Source: an uncultured Gammaproteobacteria bacterium
GTDB taxonomy: Bacteria > Patescibacteriota > Patescibacteriia > UBA9570 > XYC2-FULL-38-9
Length of the DNA stretch: 64,000 nucleotides
Assembly: GCA_964344485.1 (NCBI GenBank)
Contig: CAYFNF010000003.1
Span: forward strand, 148,467-212,466
Reading direction: 5' to 3'
Of the stretch, positions 13,197 to 46,144 are shown one piece after another. The stretch's first letter is position 1. Each line of letters starts with the position of its first letter. Made by a program: the position numbers and the translations under genes. The notes under the pieces are model-generated. The model had not been told where the DNA came from and did not search any database. It saw only the letters and a list, made by a program, of their open reading frames with translations.

Positions 13197-13892
13197 TTAT
13201 GCAATTTTTGTGCCAAGTACCTTCTTTATTAGCACCGCACCATACATGATTGCGGTCATGATGGCCAATAGAATTGCGGCGATACTCAGAGCAAAAGCAA
13301 CAAATGAATTAATACCAGCGAGCTGAGGGATAAACACTGATGCAAGAATATATAGCACAAGAATTACTGCAACATTCTTAATGTCTTGTTTGGACGGAGC
13401 GAACGTTGCTAGGACGTTAATGAGACAAAACAGATAGACCCAGAACTTCCATGTGGCTAGCGCTGCCCACTGAAAGAACAGTGCTGGATGAATCATGCTT
13501 TTTACCAGTGTATACGTTGCGCTCCAGTCGCTATTCATTGCCACACGCATGAGCTCTTTGAAATCCATCCATGTTAGAGAGAAATACCAAAATGAAAGCA
13601 CTATCAAAAGTACGGTACCGACAAACAGCGGTGCTAAAGAGATGATGAATGCTCCAAGCAACGGAATGGGTGACTTTCCATGACGCACATGACCTTCTTG
13701 CCACCCGACTTTAAACTCAGATACAGGTGCGCGCATGAGCTTACATCCAATATAATGTGATGCTTCATGCACAAATACGCCCGGCCATAGCAGCCAACGA
13801 AAGATCTTGAGCCGCAACAACTGCAAATTGAAGAAGTAGCTCACTACCTCTATTCCGATGAACAAACTGACGACGATAATAAGAGGAATCAT
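13197..13892 (-). CDS. Polytopic membrane protein with an HExxH motif (putative membrane metallopeptidase-like)
   Basis: 231 aa with about 6 TM segments. VFVHEASHYIGC lies next to TM2. Confidence 0.55.
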   Translation of the reverse strand: MIPLIIVVSLFIGIEVVSYFFNLQLLRLKIFRWLLWPGVFVHEASHYIGCKLMRAPVSEFKVGWQEGHVRHGKSPIPLLGAFIISLAPLFVGTVLLIVLSFWYFSLTWMDFKELMRVAMNSDWSATYTLVKSMIHPALFFQWAALATWKFWVYLFCLINVLATFAPSKQDIKNVAVILVLYILASVFIPQLAGINSFVAFALSIAAILLAIMTAIMYGAVLIKKVLGTKIA

Positions 13893-13896
13893 ATGT

Positions 13897-14469
13897 TTAG
13901 AATCCTAATTCATCAGCGATTTCTTGCATGGCAGCAATCGCGAGTGTGAAGAACTCGCTGCGCTCTAGTCCTGTTTTCTCTATATCGTTTATTAAATCTC
14001 GATTCACCTTAGCTGCAAAAGACTTATCTTTGAATTTCTTCGTAATGGACTTCGCTTTTACTCCTTCCAACTTCTTATCTGGACGCATTAAGGTGTACGC
14101 AACGATAAGACCAGTCAAGTTCTCAGCTGCTGATAGGCAATAATCAAGCTTGGATTCGCGCGCTACTTTAGTGTATTCCTCATTATGAGAGAGAATCGCT
14201 TGCTTCATCTCATCCGGAATCGCAAGTCCAGCGTCAGTCAATATTTGAATAGTCGTCGGCCCGTGCGCATCAGCATTGTTCTCGCCAGTTTGTTCAAAAT
14301 CTAGATCATGCAGCAAGCCAGTCACACCCCAGAACTCTTCATCCTCTTCAAAGTGCTTTGCGAGCGCGCGCATAATGACCTCGGTCTCACGTGAATGCTT
14401 GAGCATGAAATCTTCTTTCAAGTGCTCTGTAAGAAGGTCCTGTGCTTGTTCGATCGTTGGATAATTCAT
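13897..14469 (-). CDS. HD domain-containing hydrolase
   Basis: H...HD signature (LKHSRE...GLLHDLD). The start is set at M25 of the ORF-track model (MNYPTIEQ) because the upstream 24 codons would run into tRNA-Ser. Confidence 0.7.
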   Translation of the reverse strand: MNYPTIEQAQDLLTEHLKEDFMLKHSRETEVIMRALAKHFEEDEEFWGVTGLLHDLDFEQTGENNADAHGPTTIQILTDAGLAIPDEMKQAILSHNEEYTKVARESKLDYCLSAAENLTGLIVAYTLMRPDKKLEGVKAKSITKKFKDKSFAAKVNRDLINDIEKTGLERSEFFTLAIAAMQEIADELGF

Positions 14470-14488
14470 AGTTATTTTGCTAATGATG

Positions 14489-14573
14489 CGGTGGGAATGG
14501 GATTTGAACCCATGGTACATTTCTGCACACACGCACTCCAAGCGTGCGCCTTAAACCACTCGGCCATCCCACC
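14489..14573 (-). tRNA. tRNA-Ser (anticodon GGA)
   Basis: An 85-nt class II tRNA: GGTGGGA/TG/GCC-GAGTGGTTTAA-GGC/G/CACGC-TTGGAGT-GCGTG/long variable arm/ATGGG-TTCAAAT-CCCAT/TCCCACC/G. Confidence 0.9.
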
Positions 14574-14670
14574 ATATATTGTTTCAGTCCGCGTGCCAGG
14601 TCAGCCGACCAGAGCAAAGGACGCCTCTGTACAATAAAAGGCTTTGATTGTCCAGTCAAGCGCTGAGAAG

Positions 14671-17600
14671 CTATTCACTAGCCTGTTCCGCGCTTGGAAG
14701 CACAAATTCCATAATCGCGGCTCTCCTATATGTGTTGTAATCACTCAGCTTTCCACCGAATGAATCACTATATTGATATTCGTTCTGTGTACGTGCAATA
14801 TACATATCTCGCTCCTCTCCTTTGTTCTCTTCAGTATCTCCGCGAACAGTTGCACCGCGACGCGCCGCTTCTTCATAGAATGCTTGTAACGCCTGTTCGC
14901 ACCATACATGTGGAGTGATGGACACACTCGCTCCACAACTCTCTGCTTTATTAAATGCGAGCTGAGCAAATGCTTGATAGACACGCGGATGATCGATGGT
15001 TTTGTATGCAGGTTCAAGGAATAGTGTCGGATGCTCACCTTCTGTATTAGTTTCTCGAATCTGAGTAATACGCTCTACACATCGCAGTAGTATCTCGCCT
15101 TCTTCACCGCGTACATTAATTCCTTTTTTATTTGCATCCACAACATACGACAATAAGCATTCGTTGTATGCACCGCGCTTCCAGCTCTGGCACGTTTCAG
15201 ATGGTTCGGTTCCTAGTCTAATCATGCGTAATTCATCATCAAACTCCTCAGCTGTGACCGTTCCAACTTCGCTGACCGTGAATGGACGGTATAGCTGGTT
15301 CACGTCCGACGCGACTTGATGAAGACTCGCTGCTTCGCACTGCTGTTGCAAGCGCATGGCCATTCGCAGGACTGCACCACGTTCCAGAGGAGTGGCAGTA
15401 AGCTGCTCTCTGACTGCAGCGAGTTGGCGGGCGATCGCTGTAACTGCATCATCATCCGTGCGATCTGCGGTGAACTCTGCAAAATGTGCATCTGCATCAT
15501 CGAGCAGCCCGAGTGCAGCGGAACGTTGCTGCTCTAATAAGTCCTGCTCTTCATCTGAACGCTCTACTTGCACAGCGTCTTCGGTCTCAATCCAATGTTC
15601 ACGCTGATCACCTAGGAAACCAATCTGATCTTCTGCGCACTCATGCGTATATTTCCAAGAGGCAAAATCTCCCACTACATGATGTTCAATCACGCTACGC
15701 AACGCCTCGACTGGATCATCAACTTTCTTTGCTTCAAATGAGAGCAATAGGGTAGTACTCATATCTAGGAAGCCTGAACGATCATGCGCATCAATATTAT
15801 CTGCAATCGCATGACCGATCTCTGCGCTCACTCCGAGACGATCAGTAAGTACCGTAGCAACTCGGTCTCTGTAGTGTTCAGTTGGGCCAACCAATCCAGT
15901 TAATTCTTGCTCTTCTTTTATCAGTGCTCGTCGTCTGGTGCGAATTGCTTTACGTGTAGGTGGATCCAATCTCGGTAGAATCAATTCGATATTAGCAAGC
16001 GCTGCGCGAATTGCCTCTAAACGTTCAGTTGGATCATAGTCATACTCCATGCATCCAAACCGTTCTAGCATTTCAAACGAACGAAACATCTCTCGAACAC
16101 GTCGTGGATCATCACGTGTATCACGGTAACGCTGCATCATATCCTGAAGAACAGCAGCTCCTTGTTCACCTTGTGCTCGCATACGCAGGAATCCTTGCAA
16201 CAGAATACCCCTACTTTGATGAGATCTCCGTACTTTCTTGTGCGCCAAGAGCCGGCGAAAATTATCCATTGCATCCCCTTCTTCCTGTCCAATTGCTTCT
16301 TGCCCTATTTGTTCCATAAACTCAGGGTTAGCAGCGAGCGCAGCAGTTAAACCATGTATAGTCCACCACGGCGTCATGTCTCTGGCTTCTAGTACTCTAC
16401 GCTCTACTTCTTCGCGCTGTCGAAGTAGTATTCCGACAGAAGTACCATCCGGTAACAGCCCGGCCACAAATGCACTGCGCTCAGGCATGTCCATAAAGCT
16501 AAACATCTCTGGTACTTCAGTGTCAGAGAACAGATCTGCGAGTTGAGCGCGCGCTACAAAGAACTCGCCTTTTGACAGCAAACGAGTCCGTCCATATACA
16601 TCACTTGTTTCTTGATAGAGTACAGAATCTTCATCTACCATCTGTGCGATTAATGCACGTTCAATGCCAGGCATCGCTTCTAAATGCGCGCGTCCTTCCT
16701 CTGACTGAGCCAATCGTCTAATAATAGAAAATATCAGCACCGTGGTATGACCGGATCCAGCATAGAAGATATGCTCTAATAGCGGCTCGATAGCTTTAGG
16801 ATTTCCTAGTTTTCCTAGGTCCATCGCTGCATCTGTACCGTGGCCAGATTCGCGTCCACCTGGACGAATCATATCCCGCATCAGAGTTTCAATGAGAAAC
16901 TCTTCGAACTCTTCGAACTCTTCATCAGTCGCAATAGCTGCGACTTCAGGGTCGTCACGTAATAGACGTATGCGCTGTGTTCCACGTAGAATTTTTATCA
17001 GCTCATCATTGTTCCCGACATGTTGAATTGCGTCATCACGCAACGATCTACGTTGATGTTTAATAGCTGCGGTAGGGCGATCGTACGGTACAACTTCACG
17101 GTTAAAGTCACGATGCGCTCGCCAGTCAGCAAACAAACGCAAGAGATTCCTGGTTTGTTGGTTTGGATTCTCCCAGTTCGATCGGTCGATATCGCTGGGT
17201 GCCCACTCTACAGCCCTTCTCAGCTCTCTGTCTCTATCGTGCAGCATCATAAATCGATCACCAGGGCGGCGCGGAAATTCATCAGTAAGTGCACGGCCAG
17301 CTCTATCCTCCCATCCATTAAAGGTCTGCACTCGCTCACCACCGATGCGCAGATCATCTGGGTGCCTGCTATTACCATCATTCGTCAGTAGCGCGACGAC
17401 CGCTTGTTCCCACTGTCTGATCTGCGGTTCAAGGCCAGGATGCCTCTCTAATAGCTCATCCACAATTGGTTGAATATGCATTTCTCGTAACCGAGCATTA
17501 ATACGATCATGCAGCTCTGTACTCCCCGCAAGGGCATAGAGCTGCTCCTGTTGCTCGACGATCTCGGCTGTACGCTGCTGTGCTTCAGCATACAACCGAT

Positions 17601-18210
17601 CATCAATCACTTCTCTTGCACTCTCTCGTGCTGAACCCAAACTACGACGTCCTTGTCGCGATGAAACACCCTGGTCTGTTTGCAGATCTGCAACTGCTTC
17701 ACGAATGAGCTCCACAATGCGTTCATGTGCTTGCAATTGCGCTACTGCACGTTTGTGTGCTCTACTACATGTTCTGACCAACCAATGTGCTCCTGATAAC
17801 TGACGGGTACGAGCCTGCATCGCTCCGCTTATAACTGCAAGATTGCTTTCAAACGTACGTTCAAACGGCAATTCCACCACAGTAACGTCATACATGCTTA
17901 AGGTGTCAAGTGCTATCTCCTCCCATTCTGTTAAGAATTGAGCGTACTCCTGCTCTATTGCCTGCAATTCCTGTTCGAGCGCTTCTAGGCTTGCTTCAAG
18001 GTGCGCGTTCATTTCATCGTAACTCTCGCCTTGGAATACTTCACGTGCAGCAAGTAGTTCTTCTACACGCTGAGCCACTCCTTCTATGCGTTGCTGCACC
18101 CCTTGAAATCGTTCAAGCATAGCTCTGCCACGTTCAACAAACTGCTCATGATGTTCATGGTACTGAGCCTCTATTGGTGTTTGGTGATTTTCGCGAATAG
18201 GTGCATTCAT
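14671..18210 (-). CDS. Giant hypothetical protein (1179 aa), acidic and helical, with no signal peptide
   Basis: Uninterrupted ORF whose ATG lies 4 nt after the stop of the 1849-aa gene. The only hint is one HEAT/PBS-lyase-like stretch (DLGKLGNPKAIEPLLEHI). No TM segments. Confidence 0.75.
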   Translation of the reverse strand: MNAPIRENHQTPIEAQYHEHHEQFVERGRAMLERFQGVQQRIEGVAQRVEELLAAREVFQGESYDEMNAHLEASLEALEQELQAIEQEYAQFLTEWEEIALDTLSMYDVTVVELPFERTFESNLAVISGAMQARTRQLSGAHWLVRTCSRAHKRAVAQLQAHERIVELIREAVADLQTDQGVSSRQGRRSLGSARESAREVIDDRLYAEAQQRTAEIVEQQEQLYALAGSTELHDRINARLREMHIQPIVDELLERHPGLEPQIRQWEQAVVALLTNDGNSRHPDDLRIGGERVQTFNGWEDRAGRALTDEFPRRPGDRFMMLHDRDRELRRAVEWAPSDIDRSNWENPNQQTRNLLRLFADWRAHRDFNREVVPYDRPTAAIKHQRRSLRDDAIQHVGNNDELIKILRGTQRIRLLRDDPEVAAIATDEEFEEFEEFLIETLMRDMIRPGGRESGHGTDAAMDLGKLGNPKAIEPLLEHIFYAGSGHTTVLIFSIIRRLAQSEEGRAHLEAMPGIERALIAQMVDEDSVLYQETSDVYGRTRLLSKGEFFVARAQLADLFSDTEVPEMFSFMDMPERSAFVAGLLPDGTSVGILLRQREEVERRVLEARDMTPWWTIHGLTAALAANPEFMEQIGQEAIGQEEGDAMDNFRRLLAHKKVRRSHQSRGILLQGFLRMRAQGEQGAAVLQDMMQRYRDTRDDPRRVREMFRSFEMLERFGCMEYDYDPTERLEAIRAALANIELILPRLDPPTRKAIRTRRRALIKEEQELTGLVGPTEHYRDRVATVLTDRLGVSAEIGHAIADNIDAHDRSGFLDMSTTLLLSFEAKKVDDPVEALRSVIEHHVVGDFASWKYTHECAEDQIGFLGDQREHWIETEDAVQVERSDEEQDLLEQQRSAALGLLDDADAHFAEFTADRTDDDAVTAIARQLAAVREQLTATPLERGAVLRMAMRLQQQCEAASLHQVASDVNQLYRPFTVSEVGTVTAEEFDDELRMIRLGTEPSETCQSWKRGAYNECLLSYVVDANKKGINVRGEEGEILLRCVERITQIRETNTEGEHPTLFLEPAYKTIDHPRVYQAFAQLAFNKAESCGASVSITPHVWCEQALQAFYEEAARRGATVRGDTEENKGEERDMYIARTQNEYQYSDSFGGKLSDYNTYRRAAIMEFVLPSAEQASE

Positions 18211-18214
18211 ATAT

Positions 18215-21200
18215 TTATGTTGTTATCCTACCATATCCCATTACTGTTGGAAGTAGTCTCATTGGGCTAATATCTCGATATCGTGTCTTGCCTGGTTCCC
18301 CGGTTGGCTCTTCCATGCGAGCAAGATACGCCCCGGTTGCTAGAGACTTCATAAATTTCTCGAACCCTTCATGGATTGCGCGTCCTCCTTCAGAGATAAT
18401 CATCAATACCTCTTTATACTTCTCACCGGTTTCCAAGGTGCCTGACACCACCGCAGCAACACGTTCTAACTGTTCTGCTTCAACATCAGGCACAAACGTG
18501 CGAATTCCCTCTTGCACTAACGCCGGGTTCTGGAATTGTGCGAGCATGCCTAAGAATATCTTCTTAATGCTATCAATCTCTGTTTGCGCGATCTCGCCCG
18601 CGCTTCCAAGGTCCAGCTCTCCGAGTTCACCATCTGGCGTGACCACCCAATTTCCTGGGTGCGGATCTGCTTGAAATCGTCCTTTCACGAATATTTGATA
18701 CATGAGCGCGTCAAACGCTTGTACGTGGATATCTTCTAATCGACCGACGAGACCTTCATACGCAGTCATTTCATCTGGCTGCAAGTCGTATTTCGCTTGA
18801 AAATCTGCCAAGGTGCGTCGCCCCATTGCTACGTCAGTTAATTCTCGTAACGACAACCCTCGAATCTCCTCTTCTAATATATGTTCTTCACTGTGATCTA
18901 GGATCTCTGCAATGCGCACCGGGAACAGACGCGCCATAGCTGCTTGTGGGTAGTCTTCCATAGCCGCAGCCACTGCTTCATGATTCCGTACTTCTTCTTG
19001 GAAGTTTGCCTCATCACGTAACCAACGACCGATACGATCTTCCAAACCATCAGGTACAGTAAAATCTGCTTCGCGAAGATTTCCCATAATCCTATTCAGT
19101 ACCCGAAGGTCTTCCCCGAGATGCTTTGCAATAGATGGTCTTCGCACTTTTGCAATCACACGCTGTCCGTCTTCTCTAGTCGCACGATAGACTTGTTTAA
19201 TTGACGCAGCAGAGATTCGTCTGTCCATAGAAACCAGCCGATGTGGATGGCCTTCTTCAAACTGTCCCACTGCTCCCATCATGTGCATGCTGGCAGTACG
19301 GTGGAACGTTTTTGCGTTCTGTTGGAGCTTGCGCAATTCCTCGGCGATGTCATCAGGGAGCAACGGGGTACCGTCCGCGTTCTTTTCTTCAGCTAAGACT
19401 TGGCCTGCTTTAATACCGACTGGCCCGACCGCTTCTAGTAATCCACGCAGGCGTTCTCCAATTGTAGAGTCTCCTTGTCCGCGTAGTACTTCCATCATCT
19501 CGATGTAGACTTTTGCACGTCGGAATGGACCGTACTCTTGTAATGCAGTTGTAAAGATCACTCGTACTGCTTCTCTTCCTCTCTCTCCCAGTGCTTCTGC
19601 TGCTTCAGGTGGAAAGACTCGCTCAAACGATCGATCAATAAATTCTTGGAATATCGCTTCGTCTTCTTCTTCGCGCGGGTCCATGACACCGTTCTCTCCA
19701 AAGAGCAAACGGATATAGGTCTCTTCGCGTTCCTGTGGAGTGGCTGCAAAGAGTAGGTCTGGCATGTCTTCCACTGAGCACTCATTATGTCCACCGAATG
19801 CACGTAATATGCGCGGAGGTTGATCAGTCTCTCCGATAGTCCATAATACAAATTCTTTTCTGTCTTCACGGTTTAAATATGCTAAAACCGAATTGATTTT
19901 CTCTACTGTAGATTGTTGTGATAGTTCTGCGTCCTCGGTGGTGCGTCGTTGTACATCAAAAAGACGGCGTGTGATTTCCCGTGCTTGTGGAGGAGTGCGG
20001 ACTACGCCAGTATCTCCAAGTTGCAATAGCGCTTCACCCCGTACATGTGATGCGTGTGGGTAGAGCTCACTGATACGATCCAATTCGCTCGCAAAGGTCT
20101 CTTCCCCTGTTGCAAGGTGTTCTCGGAATAATGAATTCGCTCTTCGTGACCAAAGCTGCTGATGCGCTTGATCTGCAAACAGTGGAATGGTTCGTTGATA
20201 AAACGTATATAGTTCATGTGCAACATCTGGCTGAATCTCGTTCCCTTCTGGTGCAACAACTTCGTGTCCGTTCGTAGTAAGGCCACGCTCTTGTAGTAAT
20301 GCTGTTTCTATGGCGCCTAATAATTCATCACGATAATTCGTCACCTCTGGAATGAGTTCTTGAACGCGGTCCACTCTTCCAACTGCGGGGATCGAGGGAT
20401 CCGCTGGTAATTGAGTGTAGTCTATATAGAACTCTAGTGCATTGTACCGCTCTGAGTATTTGCGGTCCCCTCGGAATATCGTAGTAAAGCTCGGCGCAGA
20501 AGGATCATACGCTGCAGCATCAGATTCGATATTACGGGGGATCAACTCACTAGTGCTTTTTGAATAATGCGACTCTCGATCTATCGGGTGATAACGTTGA
20601 ACGAATCCACTCTCCACCACCTCATCTGGAAGCGCTCCTGGATGATACACTCGAAAGATGTCGCGAAGCTGCGTATCACGTGTGGAAACTGGAACAAACT
20701 GCGTTATAGCTGCAACACTCTCATCTTCTGATCGCTCATCTGGTTCCACATGCCATCTGCCCCATTGCCATATAATGCCGTGCGCTTCTAGTGCTCGTTG
20801 CATAATTGAATATGTAACCCCGCGATCAATACGATCCACGCCCCATTCTCCACTTCTATCTTCGGCTTGTTTGCATTTCCCTTCTATCTCTACGCAATAC
20901 CGTGCGAGCTCTTCTAGCTCTGGCTGAGTGAGTGCATCAAATGCTGCTTGTAAATCTGCAGCGTGTGGTGAAACGCTGGTATCAAAATTAATCGCGCCGT
21001 CTCGCAGCACTCTCTTCAGCGGCGCAACGATGGAATCGCCTGGATTAAGCACCATATACAACCGAACATACTCAATAGACAGCGAAATGCTATAGATAGC
21101 AGCTGCTTTATCGCGCTCTGTATAATCCTCAACTTCACGTCTGTCGATACAGTCGCTATCCCACTTCGGTACCACATCAAGTGCTGCCTCTAAAAAGTCT

Positions 21201-23764
21201 AACTGCTCTTGCTCTGACATACGTGCTCGTCGCTCTGCATCATTCCATGCTCCTCGAATGTGCGTCCATATTACTGAGGGATCTTCTCCTTCTAGAAAGC
21301 GGAGCATCTCTGCAGGTGGAACAGAATCAGAACATGATGATATAATCGCATCCAGAAACTCTTGTCGAGCTCGTTTAGATTCATACGTCACTGCAGGGTA
21401 TAGATGAAGTATCGGTGCGGCTCGCTCAACTAAGTCATCGTATGATGCTATCCCGACTTCATGCAACAATCCAACTAACTCAGCTTGATGCAGAGAAGCA
21501 ACTTCAGCATGGGAAACCTGTAAAATACTATGCATCTGTTCTAGGCGTTCTTGAGGGGTGAGTGTTTGAAACCCTTCTCTCTCAGCTCGTGCTTGGATCG
21601 CACGAGTTACCACGTGCTCCCATAATACATAGATAGCATCAGCACCGCGGAGAGGTGCGTCAAATCCTGTTTCTTCTAAAAATAATTCGTTCGCTGAGGG
21701 TCTCGCTTCTATAGCTGGTTGTGGAAAGTGGCGTAACCACTGTTCACACTCCTGTTGTGAAAGTGTTGCAACAAAACCTTCAAGTTCCGCGGGTTGATAT
21801 CCTCTTGCAGATAACTTCATGGCGAGTTCAGCAACCAACTGTCCAAGTGTAGCGGCGTGCTCTGCTGAAAGTAATGCGCGACCCTCTGCGCTAGTAGTAT
21901 ACCGCTGTGCAAACCGCTGAGCGAGTTCCGGAAGTATACGATCAACAGTAGGAGAAGGAATGGTCCGTGGTTCTAAGGCTGGCATGGATTCTCCTGTGGC
22001 AATTGCTTGTCCTAACGCGGCAAGCGCTTCATTGTCATCACTATCAAACGCGTTTCGCGCTTCCATCATGAGAACTTGCCTGATGACTGCTACTCTTCCC
22101 TCTGGAGTTGAGACATCATCTGCTCTACGTAACTCTTCAGGTAGATAATGCTCTCTTGTGAGGTCGACTGTTAAGACACCTTGAGTGAGTTTGTCCAGCT
22201 GCATCTTCCAATTGCGTGCTTGGTCATGAAAAAATGGGGTACTGCTTTCACTGCAGAGAGTCATAAGCTCTTCAGGCTCTGCTGCACGCACTTGCTCTTT
22301 TACTGCATCATTATATTCATATCCGTCTTCTTTCGGCCCGTCGATATCTGCGTTAGAAATAAGCGTGTCTAGCGTGTCAGCGGACACACCATCAACTACT
22401 GCTTCTAGCTGTGCACGAAGATGCTGTACTTTACGTTGTAGTTCAATACGTGCTGCAAGCTTTGCTGCTTTTTCATGATCGTCCGGGTCTTCATCAGCAG
22501 CTGCTTGCGCTTGTGGAATTTGCTCACTGAGAAACCGTAGTGTTTCATCATATGCTTTGATTACTTCCGCGCGTTGCCGCTGCAGTCGCGTGTGCAGCGA
22601 TCGTTCAAATTTCTCTTCGTCATACGGCCCTTCCTCTACTTGTGCCCCAAAATCAAATTCTCTATCCATATATCGAGAGAGTTTATCCGGTGCTACCGAA
22701 GCCCTTGCCAAATACTCTGCTCTTCCTTCAGAGTAATGGTAACCGTAATATGCGGCATGTAGTGCATTGAGCACTTCTGCAAAATTGTGAAGCACAATCC
22801 TCTGTGCATAGTGTTTTCGCATTCGCTCCTGCTCTGCTGCGTGATGAAATAACGCGTGACGATCTAATACAAAAGCAGCAACACCAACTTCAACCGCATC
22901 ATGAAAACTCTCAGCTTGAGCGATCATGTCTTCAATATGGTCTAAACCCTCAGCACGGTACAATCGCGTGCCAGGTCGGCCGGGTGGTTCATCGATAAAT
23001 GCACGTTGCACTTCTGCTGGAACAACGGTCGGCTCTTTTTCAATATTCGGTAGCCAGGTGTCTGGGCTCTCCACTAACTCCACGAGCTCTCTATATCTAT
23101 CAGCGGATCGAGGGTGGGATGTTCCAATAGGCAGATCATTCGATAGGCTTAATAGAAACTGGATAGCTGCTAATCCCTCACGTGGATTATATCCAGCTTG
23201 TGCAAGTGCGATCAGTCCACCACGGTCAGCGTCGTATTCCGCATTCAAGCGGCGCTGCTTCTCATCGTGATCTGGATAGTCTTCATGAACGACGCCTTCT
23301 TCAGTATGCTGATCAATATGTGTACTTTCATGCGCTGCCACCATAGCGATCATGTCTTCGGTCATTGGTCGACCGTGTCGTTCGCACCAGCGCCCAAGTT
23401 CTCGCAGCAATCCCATGTATGTGTAGACGTGCGCGTGCCCGCTTACGACAAACGCATTAATTCCGGGTGAATCAATTGCAACCACATCAGTGGCGGGAAT
23501 CGATAACTGCCGCTCAATTCTTGCTTGAATGCGTGCCAGCATCTCTTTTCGCGGATCATCATCATCTAGAATTCCAAAACGCTGCTCCAATTGATAGAGC
23601 ATTCGTCGTAAATACGCTTCTGTTTGGTCTTGCCTACTTTGTGCTTCTGCAAGCCCAATTATTTCTACTCTTGGCGGTTCATCATGATCAACTTCAGGAA
23701 CTTCAGCAATTGAACGTGCTGGTCGTGGTAGTCTGGATTCTGATGCTGCAGCGTGTGAGTTCAT
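18215..23764 (-). CDS. Giant fusion protein (1849 aa): N-terminal M48-like zinc peptidase motifs and a C-terminal UbiB/ABC1-type atypical kinase domain
   Basis: The N-terminus has SPGINAFVVSG...MIAMVAAHESTHID (HExxH at 23318-23332) and EYDADRGGLIALAQAGYNP, the M48 pattern. The C-terminus has AASIKQVYRATREDGQRVIAKVRRPSI and FQADPHPGNWVV (about 18650-18676), the ABC1/UbiB signatures. A TATAAT box at 23770-23775 lies 5 nt upstream of the ATG. Confidence 0.8.
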   Translation of the reverse strand: MNSHAAASESRLPRPARSIAEVPEVDHDEPPRVEIIGLAEAQSRQDQTEAYLRRMLYQLEQRFGILDDDDPRKEMLARIQARIERQLSIPATDVVAIDSPGINAFVVSGHAHVYTYMGLLRELGRWCERHGRPMTEDMIAMVAAHESTHIDQHTEEGVVHEDYPDHDEKQRRLNAEYDADRGGLIALAQAGYNPREGLAAIQFLLSLSNDLPIGTSHPRSADRYRELVELVESPDTWLPNIEKEPTVVPAEVQRAFIDEPPGRPGTRLYRAEGLDHIEDMIAQAESFHDAVEVGVAAFVLDRHALFHHAAEQERMRKHYAQRIVLHNFAEVLNALHAAYYGYHYSEGRAEYLARASVAPDKLSRYMDREFDFGAQVEEGPYDEEKFERSLHTRLQRQRAEVIKAYDETLRFLSEQIPQAQAAADEDPDDHEKAAKLAARIELQRKVQHLRAQLEAVVDGVSADTLDTLISNADIDGPKEDGYEYNDAVKEQVRAAEPEELMTLCSESSTPFFHDQARNWKMQLDKLTQGVLTVDLTREHYLPEELRRADDVSTPEGRVAVIRQVLMMEARNAFDSDDNEALAALGQAIATGESMPALEPRTIPSPTVDRILPELAQRFAQRYTTSAEGRALLSAEHAATLGQLVAELAMKLSARGYQPAELEGFVATLSQQECEQWLRHFPQPAIEARPSANELFLEETGFDAPLRGADAIYVLWEHVVTRAIQARAEREGFQTLTPQERLEQMHSILQVSHAEVASLHQAELVGLLHEVGIASYDDLVERAAPILHLYPAVTYESKRARQEFLDAIISSCSDSVPPAEMLRFLEGEDPSVIWTHIRGAWNDAERRARMSEQEQLDFLEAALDVVPKWDSDCIDRREVEDYTERDKAAAIYSISLSIEYVRLYMVLNPGDSIVAPLKRVLRDGAINFDTSVSPHAADLQAAFDALTQPELEELARYCVEIEGKCKQAEDRSGEWGVDRIDRGVTYSIMQRALEAHGIIWQWGRWHVEPDERSEDESVAAITQFVPVSTRDTQLRDIFRVYHPGALPDEVVESGFVQRYHPIDRESHYSKSTSELIPRNIESDAAAYDPSAPSFTTIFRGDRKYSERYNALEFYIDYTQLPADPSIPAVGRVDRVQELIPEVTNYRDELLGAIETALLQERGLTTNGHEVVAPEGNEIQPDVAHELYTFYQRTIPLFADQAHQQLWSRRANSLFREHLATGEETFASELDRISELYPHASHVRGEALLQLGDTGVVRTPPQAREITRRLFDVQRRTTEDAELSQQSTVEKINSVLAYLNREDRKEFVLWTIGETDQPPRILRAFGGHNECSVEDMPDLLFAATPQEREETYIRLLFGENGVMDPREEEDEAIFQEFIDRSFERVFPPEAAEALGERGREAVRVIFTTALQEYGPFRRAKVYIEMMEVLRGQGDSTIGERLRGLLEAVGPVGIKAGQVLAEEKNADGTPLLPDDIAEELRKLQQNAKTFHRTASMHMMGAVGQFEEGHPHRLVSMDRRISAASIKQVYRATREDGQRVIAKVRRPSIAKHLGEDLRVLNRIMGNLREADFTVPDGLEDRIGRWLRDEANFQEEVRNHEAVAAAMEDYPQAAMARLFPVRIAEILDHSEEHILEEEIRGLSLRELTDVAMGRRTLADFQAKYDLQPDEMTAYEGLVGRLEDIHVQAFDALMYQIFVKGRFQADPHPGNWVVTPDGELGELDLGSAGEIAQTEIDSIKKIFLGMLAQFQNPALVQEGIRTFVPDVEAEQLERVAAVVSGTLETGEKYKEVLMIISEGGRAIHEGFEKFMKSLATGAYLARMEEPTGEPGKTRYRDISPMRLLPTVMGYGRITT

Positions 23765-23832
23765 GTATGATTATAACAAATAAAAATATCACAAAATAGT
23801 GAAAAAGTCAATGGAATCCTCCAATACAATCA

Positions 23833-26800
23833 TTATGCAGCAGCAGCTGGCGGCTCGGGTTGCTGACGATGTCGATGATGGCTGAACCATGCTATACCAA
23901 CTAAGAATATAATGACGATTCCAATGTTAATCATCACCAGCATGGTGGTGCTTGAGAGGCGATTCTTCTCTTCAATCACAAACCGCGTGATCTCGACCTG
24001 GTCAGATTTCACACCGTTTACTTCGGTTTGAGCAAAAACGACGTGATCTCCTTCACCGAGCAACTCTGCTGGAACCGTAATACTCCATTTACCGTTGGTG
24101 TCTACTTGCGCGACTTTTACTAATGGGTCTGAATAGATCGTCAGAATTGCCACAGCAGACATCTCTCTATACTGCTCAGCAATCTCTCCGGAGATAGTAA
24201 TCTCGTTCTTCTGTTCTTCGACTGTGCCGCCGAATAATCGTCTTGTTGCATCAATAATATCCCACTGCTGAACTTGCGTATAGGTGACGGTCCCATCATC
24301 TGATACCGTCGGTTCGATTGTAGTGCTATCTTGCTGGAACTCTATATCCGCAGTGTCTTGCAGCTGTCCAGTCTCGGTGGTCTGCAATTCTTCTCTTTGC
24401 TGCTTGGTCAGCGGCACGACTTCATCTGTATATGTATACGGATTCTCTGGCGGTTGTTTGACTCCATCCTCAGCATATTGTGTTTTTATTAGCTCTTCAA
24501 ATTTCTTTACGTTCACTACAACCACATCTGGAAGGCCGGTGTCGGTTGAACCCCCTTGGATTGGGTTGGTGCCGTACTTCACTTCATCACTATCTGATAC
24601 GCCGTCGTCATCAGAATCCGTGTCTGTTGGGTCAGAACCCAAATCCACTTCGTCGGAATCGCTTACCCCATCTTGATCTGAGTCCGCGTCTTCTGGATCA
24701 GTACCTAGCTCTTTCTCTTGTTCATCAGTCAGGCCGTCTCCGTCACTATCGGTCTCAGCTGGCTCGGTGTCAGTTCCTTGGTCAGGGCCTGGGTCTGTGC
24801 CCTGGCTCGGATCGCCGGTGTCAGTGTCTGGAGTATCAGTAGAAGGAGTTTCTTGAGGGGTGGCAGGGGCTACGGGTACGCTCACAGGAGCACTTACTGG
24901 TGCTGACACAGTAAAGGTGATTTCATTCGAAGTAGTCTCTGGATAGCCAGCTTGTTCAGAAGTGACAGCGTATGCAGTATGCGTGCCTGTAGATAGTGCA
25001 GATGGACGACATGCAACAGAGCTGGTCTCTCCACCACCAGTTGCAGTAGTATCGCAAATTCTCTGCCCATCAACATAGATTTGGGTATAAGCACCAGTAC
25101 GTGCTAATAGAGTAATCCATGGTCGGTTATATGATGTCTGCGCGTCCACCACAACTTGTTGCATCACTGCTGCAGGGTATGGGGTTGCGCGTACAATAGT
25201 CTGTGGAGTAAATACCTTTATCACAGTATCTTTTTTCGTATTCACGACCTTTACCTTGATCGCATTCGCTCCAATTGATAGTGCGGTGGTTGGTGTGCCC
25301 TGATATGAAATCACTGGACCAGTGTCGCTGGTAATAGCAGCAGTTCCGCTCAACGTACCGTTTACGAACAGTTGTACTGCAACATCATCCACTGAGATAT
25401 TTCCGATATAGACGTTACCGAAAAAGACCGGGTTCTTACTAAACGTCACATTCGAAGTCAATTTACTTCGCTCCTCTTTTGGATAGATATGAAATCGATC
25501 TGACACTACAGAAGATCCGACCGTATACCGGACACTGGATGTCTTTCCCACATTCCCTTTCTTATCTTCGATATTTGCCTCAGACGTATGTTTGTCGTAA
25601 TTCTTCTGGATCTGCGAATCTACCTCCCATTCTCCTTGCGCGTCTGTGGTGTCAGAACCGTCTAACTCACCTTCGGTATATACAGAAACTTCAGACTCTG
25701 TTTCAGCAGTTCCACTAAATGAAACGTATTGGTTGTAAACAATGTCATTTTGTTCTGGCTCTTCGATTACTGCTGCAGGCGGGCCGATTGAGAAACTCGC
25801 GGTCTTCTCCCACTCTGTGGAGCTGGATCTACTAGCGGTCTTCACTTTTGTGTACAGCTCCCAGAGTCCGCGCTTCAGTGTAAACTCTGTTTCTGCTGTG
25901 CCGTTACTGCCGACCTGTTCTTCATTGATCTTCTCTGCGCCGTTCTTTACGCGCACAAATTTAAACACCACCCACTGGCCAGTGGTTCCGGTTGCTGATA
26001 GCTCTACCTTCAGACGACCGGTATCCTCCTGTGCACTCAGTCGATGTACGCTCGAAGGATCACTTCGCAACTGCTCTCCATTTACTGTTAGTGCGGTGGG
26101 TAACAGTGATGACGCTGATCCTTCCTGTGTAGTGAATGAGTCTACTGAAGAGTTCGATGTATTACTACTCGCATCCGCGCTCACTACCTGATAGTAATAT
26201 GTAGTGCTGCTTAAAAGCCCTGATACAGTCACTGAATGGCTCTTTGTTAATCCACTAGTTGTTTGTGACTGCGGAATTTGCTCAGTCTTTCCATATCGTA
26301 CTTGTGATGTTGCTTTTTCATTCGTGGTCCAAGTAATAACCGCGGATGTAGAACGGCGAGTGACTTGAATATCTGAAATAGTGGGCGCCGAAAGGTCTCC
26401 AGTATCTGTGGTTGGGATTACTGACCCTGAAGTAAACTGAGATGTATTGTTTGATGAGTCTGTTAGCGTTGCAGTGACTTTATAGTTAGAAGCATATGAT
26501 TCTAGAGTGCTCTTGGGAACATCAACGCTCCATGTTAAACTCGTGACCGCTGCTTCTGTTATATAGACCTCGCCTTCATTATTCCGGTCTACAAAGACCT
26601 CCACTGTTCCGTCACTAGATGCAGTACCCGAGACAGTGTATGTATCTCCTTGCAAAGAAATTGCACTGATCACTGGGGTAGCAAGCCCCTCATTTGCTCC
26701 ATCAATTAGATTAATTCCACTTGAGGAGTTGTTATAGATAGAATTCTGTGTTACTAAATTGTATTTAGTTCCACTTTGAGAGATGTTCAATCCATCTGCA

Positions 26801-29202
26801 TAGGCGTTAGTAACTATGTTGCCCGGTCCAATGGTGTTGCTCTGACTAGTATTGGAGAGTGTTACTGCGTTCCACTGACACGGAAGCGGATCACCGTTTG
26901 TATCGATGCCGATCCTGTTTGATGAGAGAGTATTGTTTGAAGAGTCAGCAAATACCACACAGCGGTCTATATTGCCGATCACATTATCACTAATGGTGTT
27001 CCCAGTGCTGTTCGCTCGAATGATAATTCCATATACGTCATCCTGAGTAACAGGTTTCGTGATACCAATCCTATTACTGGAAATCACATTATTAATTCCA
27101 CCTTGCATTAGAATGTTCATGACATTGCCCGCAATAGTGTTGCTACCATTGATAGTGTTAGAACTGCCAGTGAGTTCAAGGCCGACAGCATTCTGCATCA
27201 CCGTTTGTTTACTCACTGCGAGGCCAATAGTATTCCCAGTGGCGGTGTTACTGTCTCCTTCAATCCATAACCCCACGCCGCTATGGTTAGAGATGAAATT
27301 CGTAGATATAGAATTACTATCGCTTTCAGTATCAATCACAAGACCGTTTGTGGTGTTTCCGATATTCGTATCACTTGCAGATACACCGATGTAGTTATCT
27401 GAGAGTGTGTTTGAATCAGAGGAATAGATAGCAATGCCCGATTCATTAAAACCAATGACATTAGATTGCGATGTTCCAATTCTACTATTTGATACTCCAG
27501 TAAATAGAATTCCGGTTCCAGTGTTCCCTCGATCGACTAGTGAAGCGTTGGTTCCAATATAATTACCCTCTATCGCTAGCTGAGAGATGTTTCCTGCGCT
27601 GCTATTTGCCTCAATACCATTTGATAGATTTCCAGAGATAGTATTCTTCGAAATCGATACCGCATTCGCGCTAATGGCAATAGAGATGCCATCCTCACCA
27701 TTCGAAACCGCTGCTCCACTTGAATCCAATCCAATAGTATTCTCAGTTATTGTGACATCGCTATCGTTTTCCAAGTAAATCCCATTTGCATCATTTCCTG
27801 AAATCACGTTATTCGGACCAATCGTTGTGTCTGCCCCACCAAAGATTCCGTCAGTATTTGGAATGGCTGTTCCAGAACTGTTTAATCCAATATAGTTCCC
27901 GGTGATTGTTCCAGTGCTCTGGTTCACTACTACCCCTGACTGGGTATTACCTGCAATAGTGTTGTTCGAAAGTGTATTCGCTCCTTGAAATGTTACACCG
28001 TTATTATTTTCAACTGCGCTCGTGCCGTTACTATCTACTCCGATATTATTCTTATTCACCGTGTTCCCAGATGTAGTTGCTTCTAAGAAGATACCTGACT
28101 TTGTATTGCCTGAAATTGTATTGCCAACGATCGTGTTATTGTTTCCGGTTACTCGAATACCTGAATCCCCATTAGTGGATTTTGTGGAACCGTCTGCAGT
28201 TATACCTATATAGTTCAAACCGATAGTACTGCTACTGCCTCGCAATTCAATTCCGTTGCTCGTATTTCCAGAGATGATATTGCGGAACGCTTGGTTGCTG
28301 CTATCTCCAATAGTGATGCCAGATACCGTCGCTGCTATATTAACTCCGTTTATCCCATTAGCGGTGATAGTGTTAGAACGCAATACATTAGTATTTGAAT
28401 TCTCGATAAAATTCACTCCCTGCTCAGAATTATTCGATATCGAGTTACCGGTTACCGTGGTGCTGGTTGCAGTGCCCCCAAAATAGATTCCGTTACGATT
28501 GCCTTTGATTGTGTTGCCTGAAATGGCATTATTACTCGATGCGACCTGAATGCCTTCACCCCCTGCAAAGCCTTCTATCGTGAAATTTGATATCTGACAA
28601 TTATCCGCTCGGATAGCTAGCCCATCATTATCTTGAGCTGCTGACAGCGCGCTCCCTTCAATGCCAACTCTGTTATCCCCATCGATTATAAGTTCATCAG
28701 TAATCGCGGGTAGCACACTTGAGGTTACTGCTATCTTTCCGTTTAATGAACTATTGAAACTGATCACGTCAGCACCAAGACTCGCGTTTGCATCGAGTAT
28801 AGCTTGCCGCAAAGATCCCGCACCGCTGTCATTCAAGTTTGACACAGTGAAATTAGCAGCATACGCGACTTTGATCTGATTCACCGGTAGCACTACAGAT
28901 GAAATTGCATACAAGAGAATAACCACTGCAACAAAGAACGCGGTGACTAACCCGCTGCGTAGTCGTATCTTTTTTCTGCGACTGTGATGCTCATGATACG
29001 AAAAACCCCAGATCCCTTTATGGTCTTGGTCATATAATGTACAGAATGTGTGCTGAGGTGGATAGAAAATGATATAGAAATATTCGTACAGCACGTATGC
29101 TATATATAGTGGAACGAGCGCAATGCCTAAAAGGACACGAATAATGAACGGTCGGGGTTTGGCTTGTACGTAGCACTCAATATGATTGATGGTTTTTTTC
29201 AT
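23833..29202 (-). CDS. Giant cell-surface protein (1789 aa): parallel beta-helix repeats, FN3, Ig-like regions, TSP3-type Ca-binding repeats and a C-terminal TM anchor
   Basis: The N-terminus has hydrophobic anchors. About 750 aa of (I/V)xGNxIxxN repeats (SGNTISGN, IAGNT...) match the NosD/CASH beta-helix type. The FN3-like stretch is APTISDIQVTRRSTSAVITWTTNEKATSQVRYG. The TSP3 repeats read DSDGDGLTDEQE, DSDQDGVSDSDE and DSDDDGVSDSDE. The C-terminal TM is MLVMINIGIVIIFLVGIAWF. Confidence 0.85.
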   Translation of the reverse strand: MKKTINHIECYVQAKPRPFIIRVLLGIALVPLYIAYVLYEYFYIIFYPPQHTFCTLYDQDHKGIWGFSYHEHHSRRKKIRLRSGLVTAFFVAVVILLYAISSVVLPVNQIKVAYAANFTVSNLNDSGAGSLRQAILDANASLGADVISFNSSLNGKIAVTSSVLPAITDELIIDGDNRVGIEGSALSAAQDNDGLAIRADNCQISNFTIEGFAGGEGIQVASSNNAISGNTIKGNRNGIYFGGTATSTTVTGNSISNNSEQGVNFIENSNTNVLRSNTITANGINGVNIAATVSGITIGDSSNQAFRNIISGNTSNGIELRGSSSTIGLNYIGITADGSTKSTNGDSGIRVTGNNNTIVGNTISGNTKSGIFLEATTSGNTVNKNNIGVDSNGTSAVENNNGVTFQGANTLSNNTIAGNTQSGVVVNQSTGTITGNYIGLNSSGTAIPNTDGIFGGADTTIGPNNVISGNDANGIYLENDSDVTITENTIGLDSSGAAVSNGEDGISIAISANAVSISKNTISGNLSNGIEANSSAGNISQLAIEGNYIGTNASLVDRGNTGTGILFTGVSNSRIGTSQSNVIGFNESGIAIYSSDSNTLSDNYIGVSASDTNIGNTTNGLVIDTESDSNSISTNFISNHSGVGLWIEGDSNTATGNTIGLAVSKQTVMQNAVGLELTGSSNTINGSNTIAGNVMNILMQGGINNVISSNRIGITKPVTQDDVYGIIIRANSTGNTISDNVIGNIDRCVVFADSSNNTLSSNRIGIDTNGDPLPCQWNAVTLSNTSQSNTIGPGNIVTNAYADGLNISQSGTKYNLVTQNSIYNNSSSGINLIDGANEGLATPVISAISLQGDTYTVSGTASSDGTVEVFVDRNNEGEVYITEAAVTSLTWSVDVPKSTLESYASNYKVTATLTDSSNNTSQFTSGSVIPTTDTGDLSAPTISDIQVTRRSTSAVITWTTNEKATSQVRYGKTEQIPQSQTTSGLTKSHSVTVSGLLSSTTYYYQVVSADASSNTSNSSVDSFTTQEGSASSLLPTALTVNGEQLRSDPSSVHRLSAQEDTGRLKVELSATGTTGQWVVFKFVRVKNGAEKINEEQVGSNGTAETEFTLKRGLWELYTKVKTASRSSSTEWEKTASFSIGPPAAVIEEPEQNDIVYNQYVSFSGTAETESEVSVYTEGELDGSDTTDAQGEWEVDSQIQKNYDKHTSEANIEDKKGNVGKTSSVRYTVGSSVVSDRFHIYPKEERSKLTSNVTFSKNPVFFGNVYIGNISVDDVAVQLFVNGTLSGTAAITSDTGPVISYQGTPTTALSIGANAIKVKVVNTKKDTVIKVFTPQTIVRATPYPAAVMQQVVVDAQTSYNRPWITLLARTGAYTQIYVDGQRICDTTATGGGETSSVACRPSALSTGTHTAYAVTSEQAGYPETTSNEITFTVSAPVSAPVSVPVAPATPQETPSTDTPDTDTGDPSQGTDPGPDQGTDTEPAETDSDGDGLTDEQEKELGTDPEDADSDQDGVSDSDEVDLGSDPTDTDSDDDGVSDSDEVKYGTNPIQGGSTDTGLPDVVVVNVKKFEELIKTQYAEDGVKQPPENPYTYTDEVVPLTKQQREELQTTETGQLQDTADIEFQQDSTTIEPTVSDDGTVTYTQVQQWDIIDATRRLFGGTVEEQKNEITISGEIAEQYREMSAVAILTIYSDPLVKVAQVDTNGKWSITVPAELLGEGDHVVFAQTEVNGVKSDQVEITRFVIEEKNRLSSTTMLVMINIGIVIIFLVGIAWFSHHRHRQQPEPPAAAA
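24582..24750 (-). repeat. Three thrombospondin type-3-like acidic calcium-binding repeats (coding)
   Basis: The DxDxDGxxDxxE motif is repeated three times in the translated sequence of the giant surface protein. Confidence 0.6.
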
Positions 29203-29317
29203 ATCTCAGGATAACAAAAAGGCCTTCTCCTCAATAAAAAGCCTTTATTTTTCTATTCAATGAATGCATATACTATTGTCTGGTTTTGTTTTTGTTTTTG
29301 AACTGACTACATATAGA

Positions 29318-29346
29318 ATTTTAACATTTTTAAGATTGTTTGTCAA
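29318..29346 (-). promoter_or_regulatory. Sigma70-like promoter TTGACA-17-TAAAAT for the giant surface-protein gene
   Basis: Minus-strand TTGACA at 29346-29341, a 17-nt spacer, and TAAAAT at 29323-29318. It lies about 110 nt upstream of the ATG at 29202. Confidence 0.45.
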
Positions 29347-40544: not shown

Positions 40545-40549
40545 TTCGT

Positions 40550-40578
40550 TGACGGTTAGGCCATTTTTAGTATATAAT
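40550..40578 (+). promoter_or_regulatory. Candidate promoter TTGACG-(17/18)-TATAAT for the 40605 gene
   Basis: TTGACG at 40550-40555 and TATAAT at 40573-40578, about 26 nt upstream of the ATG. Confidence 0.35.
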
Positions 40579-40604
40579 ATCAACACATTCATCGCAATAG
40601 CACT

Positions 40605-46119: not shown

Positions 46120-46144
46120 CCACCCATAACGGGTGGTTTTATTT
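46120..46144 (+). terminator. Intrinsic terminator after clpC
   Basis: CCACCC-ATAAC-GGGTGG followed by TTTTATTT. Confidence 0.6.

Follow-up and report, generated by a model that had tools for sequence, protein, structure and literature searches.

The three giant genes that lie one after another at positions 14671–29202 of the window, that is, of the whole 64,000-nucleotide stretch analysed here (contig CAYFNF010000003.1 of assembly GCA_964344485.1), appear to be evolutionarily independent of one another and to stand side by side only in this lineage, on a Peregrinibacteria-like chromosome of the candidate phyla radiation (CPR), a reading to which we assign a probability of about 0.6. The block consists of three intact open reading frames (ORFs) on the minus strand, each with an ATG start, numbered here in the direction of transcription (1789, 1849 and 1179 aa for genes 1, 2 and 3, respectively), and it spans 14,532 nt, or 22.7% of the window. 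A preliminary description of this DNA had given the coordinates, lengths and strand correctly, and the share of the window as about 23%, and had proposed that the trio forms a module for contact and effector functions that is likely to be central to the lifestyle of the bacterium. Our data did not bear out this proposal: synteny of the trio was not found in relatives, and searches against Pfam, NCBIfam and PADLOC revealed no toxin, secretion or defence signature. On our reading, genes 2 and 3 became neighbours recently and do not make up a conserved system.

The synteny survey was anchored on the loci of gene-2 and gene-3 homologues, about 50 in all. Eight distinct loci, each with up to 10 kb of flanking sequence, carry a full-length or near-full-length homologue of gene 2 (L001/L002, the same locus recovered from two samples, L003, L004, L005, L055, L056, L057 and L058), and 42 loci with homologues of gene 3 were fetched (L059–L100, about 41 of them distinct, L059 and L060 being near-duplicates). 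No homologue of gene 1 or gene 3 was detected near gene 2 in the eight distinct loci (tblastn, E ≤ 1e-2), and no homologue of gene 1 or gene 2 was detected near gene 3 in the 42 fetched loci, so that the conservation of the trio in related genomes, raised in the preliminary description, failed for every pair. The region downstream of gene 2 in the relatives is occupied by unrelated genes or by genes on the other strand. An all-against-all clustering of flanking ORFs yielded no conserved neighbour of the gene-3 family, and two recurrent clusters of small ORFs that were considered as such neighbours turned out to be antisense shadows within the large gene. In addition, no protein fusing gene 2 to gene 3 was present among 149 gene-3 relatives and 11 members of the gene-2 family.

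The neighbourhood of gene 2 is informative on the position of gene 1. In the window, the gene order is PPDK, gene 1, gene 2; in L005, which belongs to a metagenome-assembled genome (MAG) of Candidatus Peregrinibacteria, gene 2 has the PPDK gene immediately on its upstream side. Gene 1 thus has the look of an insertion or of a lineage-specific neighbour, not of a partner; the arrangement suggests that it entered the space between the other two genes in the lineage of the window. In L001, dnaG-rpoD adjoin gene 2, and a SpoU methylase gene lies near gene 2 in L001, L003 and L055. Gene 2 thus retains loose links to the housekeeping genes PPDK, dnaG-rpoD and SpoU. Comparison of L001 with the window showed identities of 75% for RpoD and 54% for DnaG, with 34% for gene 2, which looks like a vertically inherited, fast-evolving chromosomal gene. 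Together with the Candidatus Peregrinibacteria MAG of L005, these identities make a Peregrinibacteria-like CPR bacterium the most likely source of the window.

We also examined whether the local arrangement links the three genes to one another. The co-orientation of the trio is uninformative, because nearly all genes between about 2100 and 40600 are on the minus strand and the GC skew is negative throughout. Under a random gene order, the three longest among about 50 genes would stand next to one another with a probability of 6/(n(n−1)), or about 0.002, a figure obtained by post-hoc arithmetic. The junction between genes 2 and 3 (...ACA TAA ATAT ATG AAT...) has the 4-nt spacer reported in the preliminary description, and no terminator-like hairpin was detected in either intergenic gap of the block. 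Given this confirmed spacer and the lack of a terminator-like site between genes 2 and 3, their co-transcription, proposed earlier, is plausible: from the arrangement of the sequence, the two are probably transcribed together in this genome, and their translation may be coupled as well. The coupling of gene 1, which is separated from gene 2 by 68 nt, to the other two genes is doubtful. A strong promoter-like site was found upstream of gene 1; it is the best such site in the scanned region, by consensus match only, and the region contains 13 promoter-like sites vs 23 expected from shuffles. A hairpin of 11 bp with a T-rich tract lies between this site and the gene 1 ATG (29218–29246, minus strand), and could be either the terminator of an upstream unit or an element of the 5′ untranslated region. 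Gene 2 has a weaker predicted site of its own and, as seen by eye, an extended −10 element (TGtTATAAT, 23778..23770) ending 5 nt before its ATG, a position that would be compatible with a leaderless transcript.

Genes 2 and 3 also share an unusual amino acid composition. Their proteins contain 11% Glu, 9–10% Arg and about 2% Lys, with an R/(K+R) ratio of 0.79–0.86, as compared with 0.18–0.40 (Lys exceeding Arg) for the PPDK, PK, DnaG, RpoD, EF-P, ClpB and RecG proteins encoded in the window. The bias was considered as a family trait and this was rejected: the homologues of both families span R/(K+R) values of 0.25–0.87, and the Arg-rich bias is therefore specific to these genes in this genome. 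Three small ORFs of the window (4976–5893, 6264–7232 and 46133–46822) show the same Arg-rich, Lys-poor bias.

The product of gene 2 had been described as a fusion of an M48 peptidase with a UbiB kinase, and our analysis confirmed this architecture: an N-terminal M48 domain and a C-terminal UbiB/ABC1 domain stand at the two ends of a long all-alpha solenoid, whose last ~280 residues (1130–1410) are strongly conserved. The Pfam matches of both domains were above threshold: Peptidase_M48 (PF01435) scored 30.6 bits over residues 74–152 against a cut-off of 20.3, with the match covering only the first ~80 of 186 model positions, and ABC1 (PF03109) scored 93.5 bits over residues 1516–1741 against a cut-off of 22.9. 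A profile of the gene-2 family searched against the Protein Data Bank (PDB) matched, with its N-terminus, the M48 peptidase 3c37 (1e-10), BepA (7e-6) and HtpX (5e-3) and, with its C-terminus, mycobacterial ABC1/MABP-1-like proteins and COQ8A/B, with E-values of 5e-17 for 5yjz and 1e-13 for 7cy2.

Catalytic motifs were conserved in both domains. In an alignment of 11 gene-2 family members (21–39% identity), the zinc site was invariant, with the motif H145-E-x-x-H149 followed by E176-Y-D-A-D180, in which the third-ligand Glu is placed in a downstream ExxAD. The UbiB/ABC1 family is recognised by a KxGQ motif, an A-rich loop, a catalytic Lys, a DxHxGN loop and a Mg-binding Asp. All of these elements are present in gene 2, as KxGQ (K1452, Q1455), the A-rich loop AASIKQV (~1519–1525), K1539, D1700-x-H1702-x-G-N1705 and D1718-x-G1720, and residues K1452, G1454, Q1455, A1520, S1521, K1523, K1539, D1700, H1702, G1704, N1705, D1718 and G1720 are conserved in at least 90% of the same alignment.

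Each of the two domains departs from its closest known relatives. As in the soluble M48 enzymes (BepA/YfgC and 3c37 from Geobacter), the HExxH motif and downstream Glu are accompanied by Pfam and PDB profile matches and, as in BepA, the catalytic domain precedes a helical repeat region. This region exceeds the tetratricopeptide repeat domain of BepA about fivefold in length and, in gene 2, ends in a kinase-like domain. The comparison also included the membrane M48 proteins HtpX, Ste24 and Oma1 and the plastoglobule protein PGM48. In agreement with the preliminary description, hydropathy analysis revealed no transmembrane (TM) segment in the products of genes 2 and 3, and in gene 2 no 19-residue window exceeded a Kyte-Doolittle value of 1.6, which speaks against the membrane embedding of the HtpX/Ste24/Oma1 type; the M48 domain resembles the soluble branch represented by BepA and 3c37. 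Having neither signal peptide nor TM segment, the gene 2 product is predicted to be cytoplasmic. The C-terminal ~430 residues keep all the hallmark motifs of UbiB/ABC1/COQ8 proteins (PF03109; PDB 5yjz, 7cy2 and, for COQ8A, 4ped), but the protein is about four times larger than these, carries a protease at the far end of a 1150-residue solenoid and has no TM anchor. Moreover, it falls far below the equivalog cut-offs of UbiB (TIGR01982, 112.9 vs 487.55 bits; PRK04750, 72.1 vs 667 bits; C-terminal TM segment absent) and also of MABP-1. To our knowledge, the lineage of gene 2 is not known for quinone synthesis.

The gene-2 architecture is rare, with 11 clusters among 5.8 billion sequences. A word-indexed search recovered ten relatives with 27–41% identity by BLASTP, nine of them of 1731–2327 aa and one (P0010) of 1236 aa; nine of the ten carry both M48 and ABC1 domains, and P0010 carries M48 along with a weak Peptidase_U49 match. 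The only species-representative genome with a full-length relative is the Candidatus Peregrinibacteria MAG of locus L005. Genes 2 and 3 each align from end to end with homologues as long as themselves and are thus intact genes, not the pseudogene or misassembly that the preliminary description had considered. In L057, the gene-2 homologue is split or frameshifted at 13690–13715 into a 1236-aa piece with M48 and scaffold and a 572-aa ABC1 piece (junction ATGGGCGCCATGA), with homology continuous across the frame change; the split may reflect an indel in the assembly, a pseudogene or a true arrangement of two separate genes. In the literature searched, we found neither an account of an M48-UbiB fusion nor one of UbiB-family proteins from Peregrinibacteria or Patescibacteria. 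The architecture is new, and is assembled from known enzyme families.

Gene 3 had been regarded as an acidic helical orphan. The protein is indeed acidic, with the pI of 5.0 given in Table 1, but it is neither an orphan nor purely helical, as it has hundreds of relatives and a C-terminal alpha/beta domain. A word-indexed search, either with the single sequence or with a 25-sequence profile, returned only the query itself; an exhaustive phmmer search covering 1.84 billion representatives yielded 274 proteins at E ≤ 1e-3, 45 of them at E ≤ 1e-30. Six relatives are full-length, at 32–38% identity, and many others, of 750–1500 aa, share only the last ~200 residues. The family comprises at least 274 clusters at 50% identity and has no Pfam model. 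The possibility that gene 3 is a diverged paralogue of the gene 2 scaffold was discarded, since nothing below E 0.86 was obtained by BLASTP and the hhalign probability was 0.1%.

An AlphaFold2 (AF2) model of the gene 3 protein, built on a 103-sequence alignment, reached a pLDDT of 90.1 and a pTM of 0.81. Long paired helices at the N-terminus are followed by an alpha-solenoid with HEAT-like repeats and by the conserved C-terminal domain, in which the order of elements in the model is that of GNAT acyltransferases. The top 50 Foldseek matches of this domain are mostly GNATs, none of them at E ≤ 1e-3; AtaT is one of the GNATs matched. Residues G1000, P1003, C1007, C1018, L1019, R1043, E1066, Y1069, K1088, Y1147 and D1149 are near-invariant in 97 sequences, and all are kept in the window; the motif of the domain is PxETCQSW..YNECLLAYV..D.NKK ... 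EYSD.LGG. Every residue of the domain conserved in at least 94 of the 97 sequences is retained in the window protein, as are 23 of the 24 positions conserved in at least 80% of them, the exception being S1141, which is Thr in the window. These data indicate that gene 3 is a member of an uncharacterised family with a GNAT fold. A distant relative, P0105 (2037 aa), carries the family's GNAT-fold domain at residues 1653–1817 followed by a canonical Acetyltransf_1 domain at 1882–1972, that is, a divergent and a classical domain in tandem.

Gene 1 was described earlier as a surface adhesin-like protein, and this stands as a fair description, adhesion itself being a prediction from the domain content. 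Pfam matches comprised Beta_helix (8e-32), NosD (2e-29), TSP3_bac (3e-11) and the fn3-like Pur_ac_phosph_N (2e-8), and NCBIfam gave a match to TIGR03804. A Kyte-Doolittle scan revealed three TM-like segments (residues 16–46, 78–112 and 1748–1776), the last of which is followed by a basic tail at the C-terminus; the second precedes an AxA site (VAYA|AN). With two hydrophobic segments at the N-terminus and the AxA site after the second, the putative export signal is ambiguous. The protein thus combines the beta-helix repeats of parallel beta-helix surface proteins with signals of export and anchoring. No sequence relatives of gene 1 were found in the PDB. Very large proteins are numerous in Peregrinibacteria, where several are extracellular, and large surface proteins are reported to be typical of this phylum and to vary between strains (PMC4736985, e.g., Ca. 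Peribacter riflensis). Gene 1 resembles such proteins in its very large size, its extracellular-type repeats and its membrane anchor; unlike the cysteine-rich proteins highlighted in Peribacter (PMC4736985), it is Cys-poor and built of beta-helix and TSP3 repeats. Gene 1 would be an ordinary cell-surface or attachment protein of the CPR kind.

Under the favoured explanation of three independent genes brought together in this lineage, gene 1 would encode a membrane-anchored surface protein and carry its own promoter-like site. Gene 2 would encode a cytoplasmic 209-kDa enzyme with a BepA-like M48 domain and a UbiB/ABC1 domain at opposite ends of a solenoid of ~1150 residues. This solenoid would bind a protein, or lipid-associated, client, and nucleotide binding or hydrolysis by the UbiB module would gate or target cleavage by the M48 domain, making the protein a self-contained, ATP-regulated processing protease. 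Gene 3 would encode a cytoplasmic 135-kDa protein in which a coiled-coil/HEAT solenoid presents a divergent GNAT-fold domain, which may acylate or bind a macromolecule gripped by the solenoid.

Several observations weigh against this explanation. The databases searched contain no relatives of this genome above 50% identity, and the survey reaches identities of at most 41%; a functional link between genes 2 and 3 that is peculiar to this lineage, and that relatives at such a distance would not reveal, could underlie their 4-nt spacing and common composition bias. The evidence for coupling between protease and UbiB module in gene 2 is the domain fusion itself. Regarding gene 3, the C-terminal domain gave no Pfam match even at E ≤ 10, hhalign against a canonical GNAT returned a probability of 0.2%, and the (Q/R)xxGx(G/A) acetyl-CoA loop after strand b4 was not seen by inspection of the sequence at that place (EPAYKTIDHPRVYQAF), so the domain may bind rather than catalyse. 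Unlike GNATs such as NatD/NAA40, Eis-like 2hv2, AANAT, AAC(6′) and AtaT, it lacks sequence similarity to the superfamily and the CoA-pyrophosphate loop, carries a distinct set of invariant residues (two Cys, Glu-x-x-Tyr, Arg, Lys and Tyr-x-Asp), and is attached to a helical scaffold of ~980 residues. Given the missing sequence match, the missing loop and the separate invariant set, the AF2 model places gene 3 among GNATs at the level of fold only.

Among the alternatives, we considered a role of gene 2 in the homeostasis of lipids or membranes. The protein would then be a Rosetta-stone fusion of a lipid- or quinone-handling UbiB/ABC1 ATPase with the M48 protease found beside ABC1 kinases on plastoglobule and cyanoglobule lipid droplets; in a CPR cell it would serve lipid scavenging or remodelling, and gene 3 would be unrelated. 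This is unlikely. ABC1K proteins and the M48 metalloprotease PGM48/sll1280 are core proteins of the plastoglobule/cyanoglobule proteome (PMC12223511), and PGM48 is co-expressed with ABC1K7 and ABC1K3 (bioRxiv 10.1101/2021.02.05.430006), which makes a suggestive precedent, by analogy, for a functional link; however, this link consists of co-localisation and co-expression only, in very distant organisms. The hallmark UbiB motifs are intact in gene 2, but the UbiB equivalog threshold is failed widely (113 vs 488 bits), and the hydropathy profile shows neither a TM nor an amphipathic membrane anchor. The window contains a separate, canonical HtpX-type M48 peptidase gene (41727–42662, plus strand; full-length match to PF01435, 3.7e-32), so the genome has a standard M48 besides the giant fused one and the fused copy would have a distinct role; yet no lipid genes are consistently found near gene 2.

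The contact module of the preliminary description, in which an adhesin for host contact would be encoded in one operon with two giant TM-less effectors exported to, or acting on, the host, is quite unlikely. The trio is contiguous, runs in one direction and is not interrupted by terminator-like sites, but co-orientation is common to ~25 consecutive genes, a strong promoter-like site precedes gene 1 and a possible one gene 2, the trio or any pair of it is absent from the eight distinct gene-2 and 42 fetched gene-3 loci, and the abutment of PPDK on gene 2 in L005 makes the adhesin look inserted. The rapid evolution of genes 2 and 3 (34% identity for gene 2 where RpoD is 75% identical) and their enzymatic end-domains on long scaffolds, which recall many effectors, would fit such a role, as would the presumed episymbiotic life of CPR bacteria, the very large and partly extracellular proteins of Peregrinibacteria mentioned above (PMC4736985) and the presence in the window of a gene for a 381-aa protein with a T4SS_pilin domain (62172–63317, minus strand; PF18895, 3e-8). 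On the other side, Pfam and NCBIfam gave neither a secretion signal nor a toxin domain nor any marker of polymorphic toxins. When contact-delivery modules (contact-dependent inhibition, polymorphic toxins of type VI and type VII secretion systems) were specifically considered, there was no linkage in the ~50 loci, and toxin, pre-toxin and secretion domains were all absent from the Pfam and NCBIfam results.

An anti-phage or abortive-infection pair, likened to the Lit protease and the AtaT/TacT GNAT toxins, in which gene 2 would provide a Lit-like zinc protease with a kinase sensor and gene 3 a GNAT-fold toxin-like acyltransferase, is very unlikely: the weak Peptidase_U49 (Lit) Pfam matches in the gene-2 relatives P0002 and P0010 are of a kind expected between U49 and M48, because both are HExxH zincins. 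In its favour, AtaT is among the Foldseek matches, evolution is fast, distribution is patchy, and some gene-2 loci have mobile or defence-like genes nearby: L056 has an IS1595 transposase together with ORF6N and AAA_14/DUF4143 genes, L058 has a DUF4011/AAA_11/AAA_12/MTES_1575 helicase and L001 has a PIN/MazE pair. Against it, the surroundings of most gene-2 loci are housekeeping genes (PPDK, dnaG-rpoD, SpoU, Dap genes, Lgt), the two families were not seen together at any other locus examined, neither of them occurs in IMG/VR viral contigs, which argues against a phage origin too, and PADLOC-DB gave no match at E ≤ 0.01 for the five proteins tested (genes 1–3 and two neighbouring genes). What favours these three alternatives is context, with nothing positive beyond it.

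Set against the favoured juxtaposition of independent genes, a more far-reaching proposal seems quite improbable, namely that gene 2 represents a new class of self-contained, nucleotide-gated processing machine, in which UbiB/ABC1 controls M48 via a giant solenoid, and that the co-transcribed gene 3 of this lineage adds a new GNAT-fold modification of the same client. What UbiB/ABC1 proteins do at the molecular level is still a matter of debate. If the proposal were true, the Rosetta-stone fusion would show that UbiB/ABC1 'kinases' work physically with M48 proteases, in line with their co-residence in plastoglobules and cyanoglobules, and that, in a CPR bacterium, they have a function independent of quinones. 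A functional fusion would offer a genetic argument for the joint action of UbiB/ABC1 and M48, as well as a soluble, TM-free construct for biochemistry. The gene-3 family, for its part, deserves definition, as a GNAT-fold domain with an unusual invariant Cys/Glu/Tyr set. Two cautions for genome scanning also emerge: a word-indexed search made an orphan of a gene for which exhaustive HMMER searching found hundreds of relatives, and tight adjacency of large genes can occur with no backing from synteny.

Table 1. Features of the block and its borders. Residue numbers refer to the protein named; for structural matches, the matched protein is followed by the two values reported with it.
Feature	Coordinates	Strand	Details
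Gene 1	23833..29202	-	cell-surface protein (predicted)
Gene 1 parallel beta-helix/NosD repeats			residues ~115-840
Gene 1 fn3-like (Pur_ac_phosph_N) domain			residues 945-1025
Gene 1 bacterial TSP3 (Ca-binding) repeats			residues ~1470-1540
Promoter-like site upstream of gene 1	29318..29346	-	TTGACA-17-TAAAAT with TG; 11/12 matches, sigma-70-like
Possible own promoter of gene 2	23770..23811	-	predicted weak site TTGACT-17-TATTTT (+TG), 23811..23783
Gene 2	18215..23764	-	209 kDa, pI 4.9, no TM; M48 protease + helical scaffold + UbiB/ABC1
Soluble M48 zinc-metalloprotease domain	23030..23587	-	gene 2 residues ~60-245
All-alpha solenoid scaffold	19523..23029	-	gene 2 residues ~246-1414
UbiB/ABC1 atypical kinase/ATPase domain	18218..19522	-	gene 2 residues ~1415-1849
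Gene 2/gene 3 spacer	18211..18214	-	ATAT, 4 nt, between gene 2 stop TAA and gene 3 ATG
Gene 3	14671..18210	-	135 kDa, pI 5.0, no TM; coiled coil + HEAT-like solenoid + C-terminal GNAT-fold domain
Long paired helices, coiled-coil-like	17392..18177	-	gene 3 residues 12-273; common to the six closest homologues only
Alpha-solenoid with HEAT-like repeats	15277..17322	-	gene 3 residues 297-978; AF2, weak HEAT_PBS (Pfam) and weak alphaRep matches of the family profile
Conserved alpha/beta domain, GNAT topology	14701..15258	-	gene 3 residues 985-1170
Structural match of gene 3 domain: 4u9w_A			NatD; 9.8; 153
Structural match of gene 3 domain: 2hv2_A			Eis-like GNAT; 9.8; 147
Structural match of gene 3 domain: 4fd7			AANAT7; 9.1; 159
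Structural match of gene 3 domain: 5f46			AAC; 8.7; 127
Promoter-like site	14659..14631	-	between gene 3 and tRNA-Ser(GGA)
tRNA-Ser(GGA)	14488..14573	-	97 nt downstream of gene 3; downstream limit of any transcription unit

The block is set among housekeeping genes. Upstream of it lie the genes for pyruvate kinase and PPDK, and downstream the tRNA-Ser(GGA) gene, an HD-domain gene, dnaG and rpoD; EF-P, SSB, ribosomal protein S6, a ClpB-like protein, RecG and the canonical HtpX-type M48 are encoded farther off in the window. The proteins of genes 1–3 are singletons, and no tandem repeats of note were found in the block. A mechanically called ORF with a TTG start (13897–14541) overlaps the tRNA-Ser(GGA) gene, and the start of the HD-domain gene is more likely at an ATG near 14468.

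With regard to the surroundings of M48 genes, about 25 Chitinophagaceae/Bacteroidota loci (among L008–L054, fetched via the M48 motif A[RQM]AGYNPRE) carry a dnaG homologue 2–3 kb from a small M48-like gene, and both in the window and in L001 the giant M48-ABC1 gene is within a few kb of dnaG-rpoD (window 11324–13114, L001 6639–8408). This proximity may be a coincidence or an old linkage. The gene with the T4SS_pilin domain is adjoined by an ORF of 412 aa (60913–62151) that has no Pfam match, and this region could be part of a conjugation- or secretion-type apparatus. Finally, a fourth large ORF of 996 aa (37602–40592, minus strand), with no Pfam match and a composition low in charged residues (K 2.0%, R 1.6%, E 2.6%), probably encodes another surface protein.

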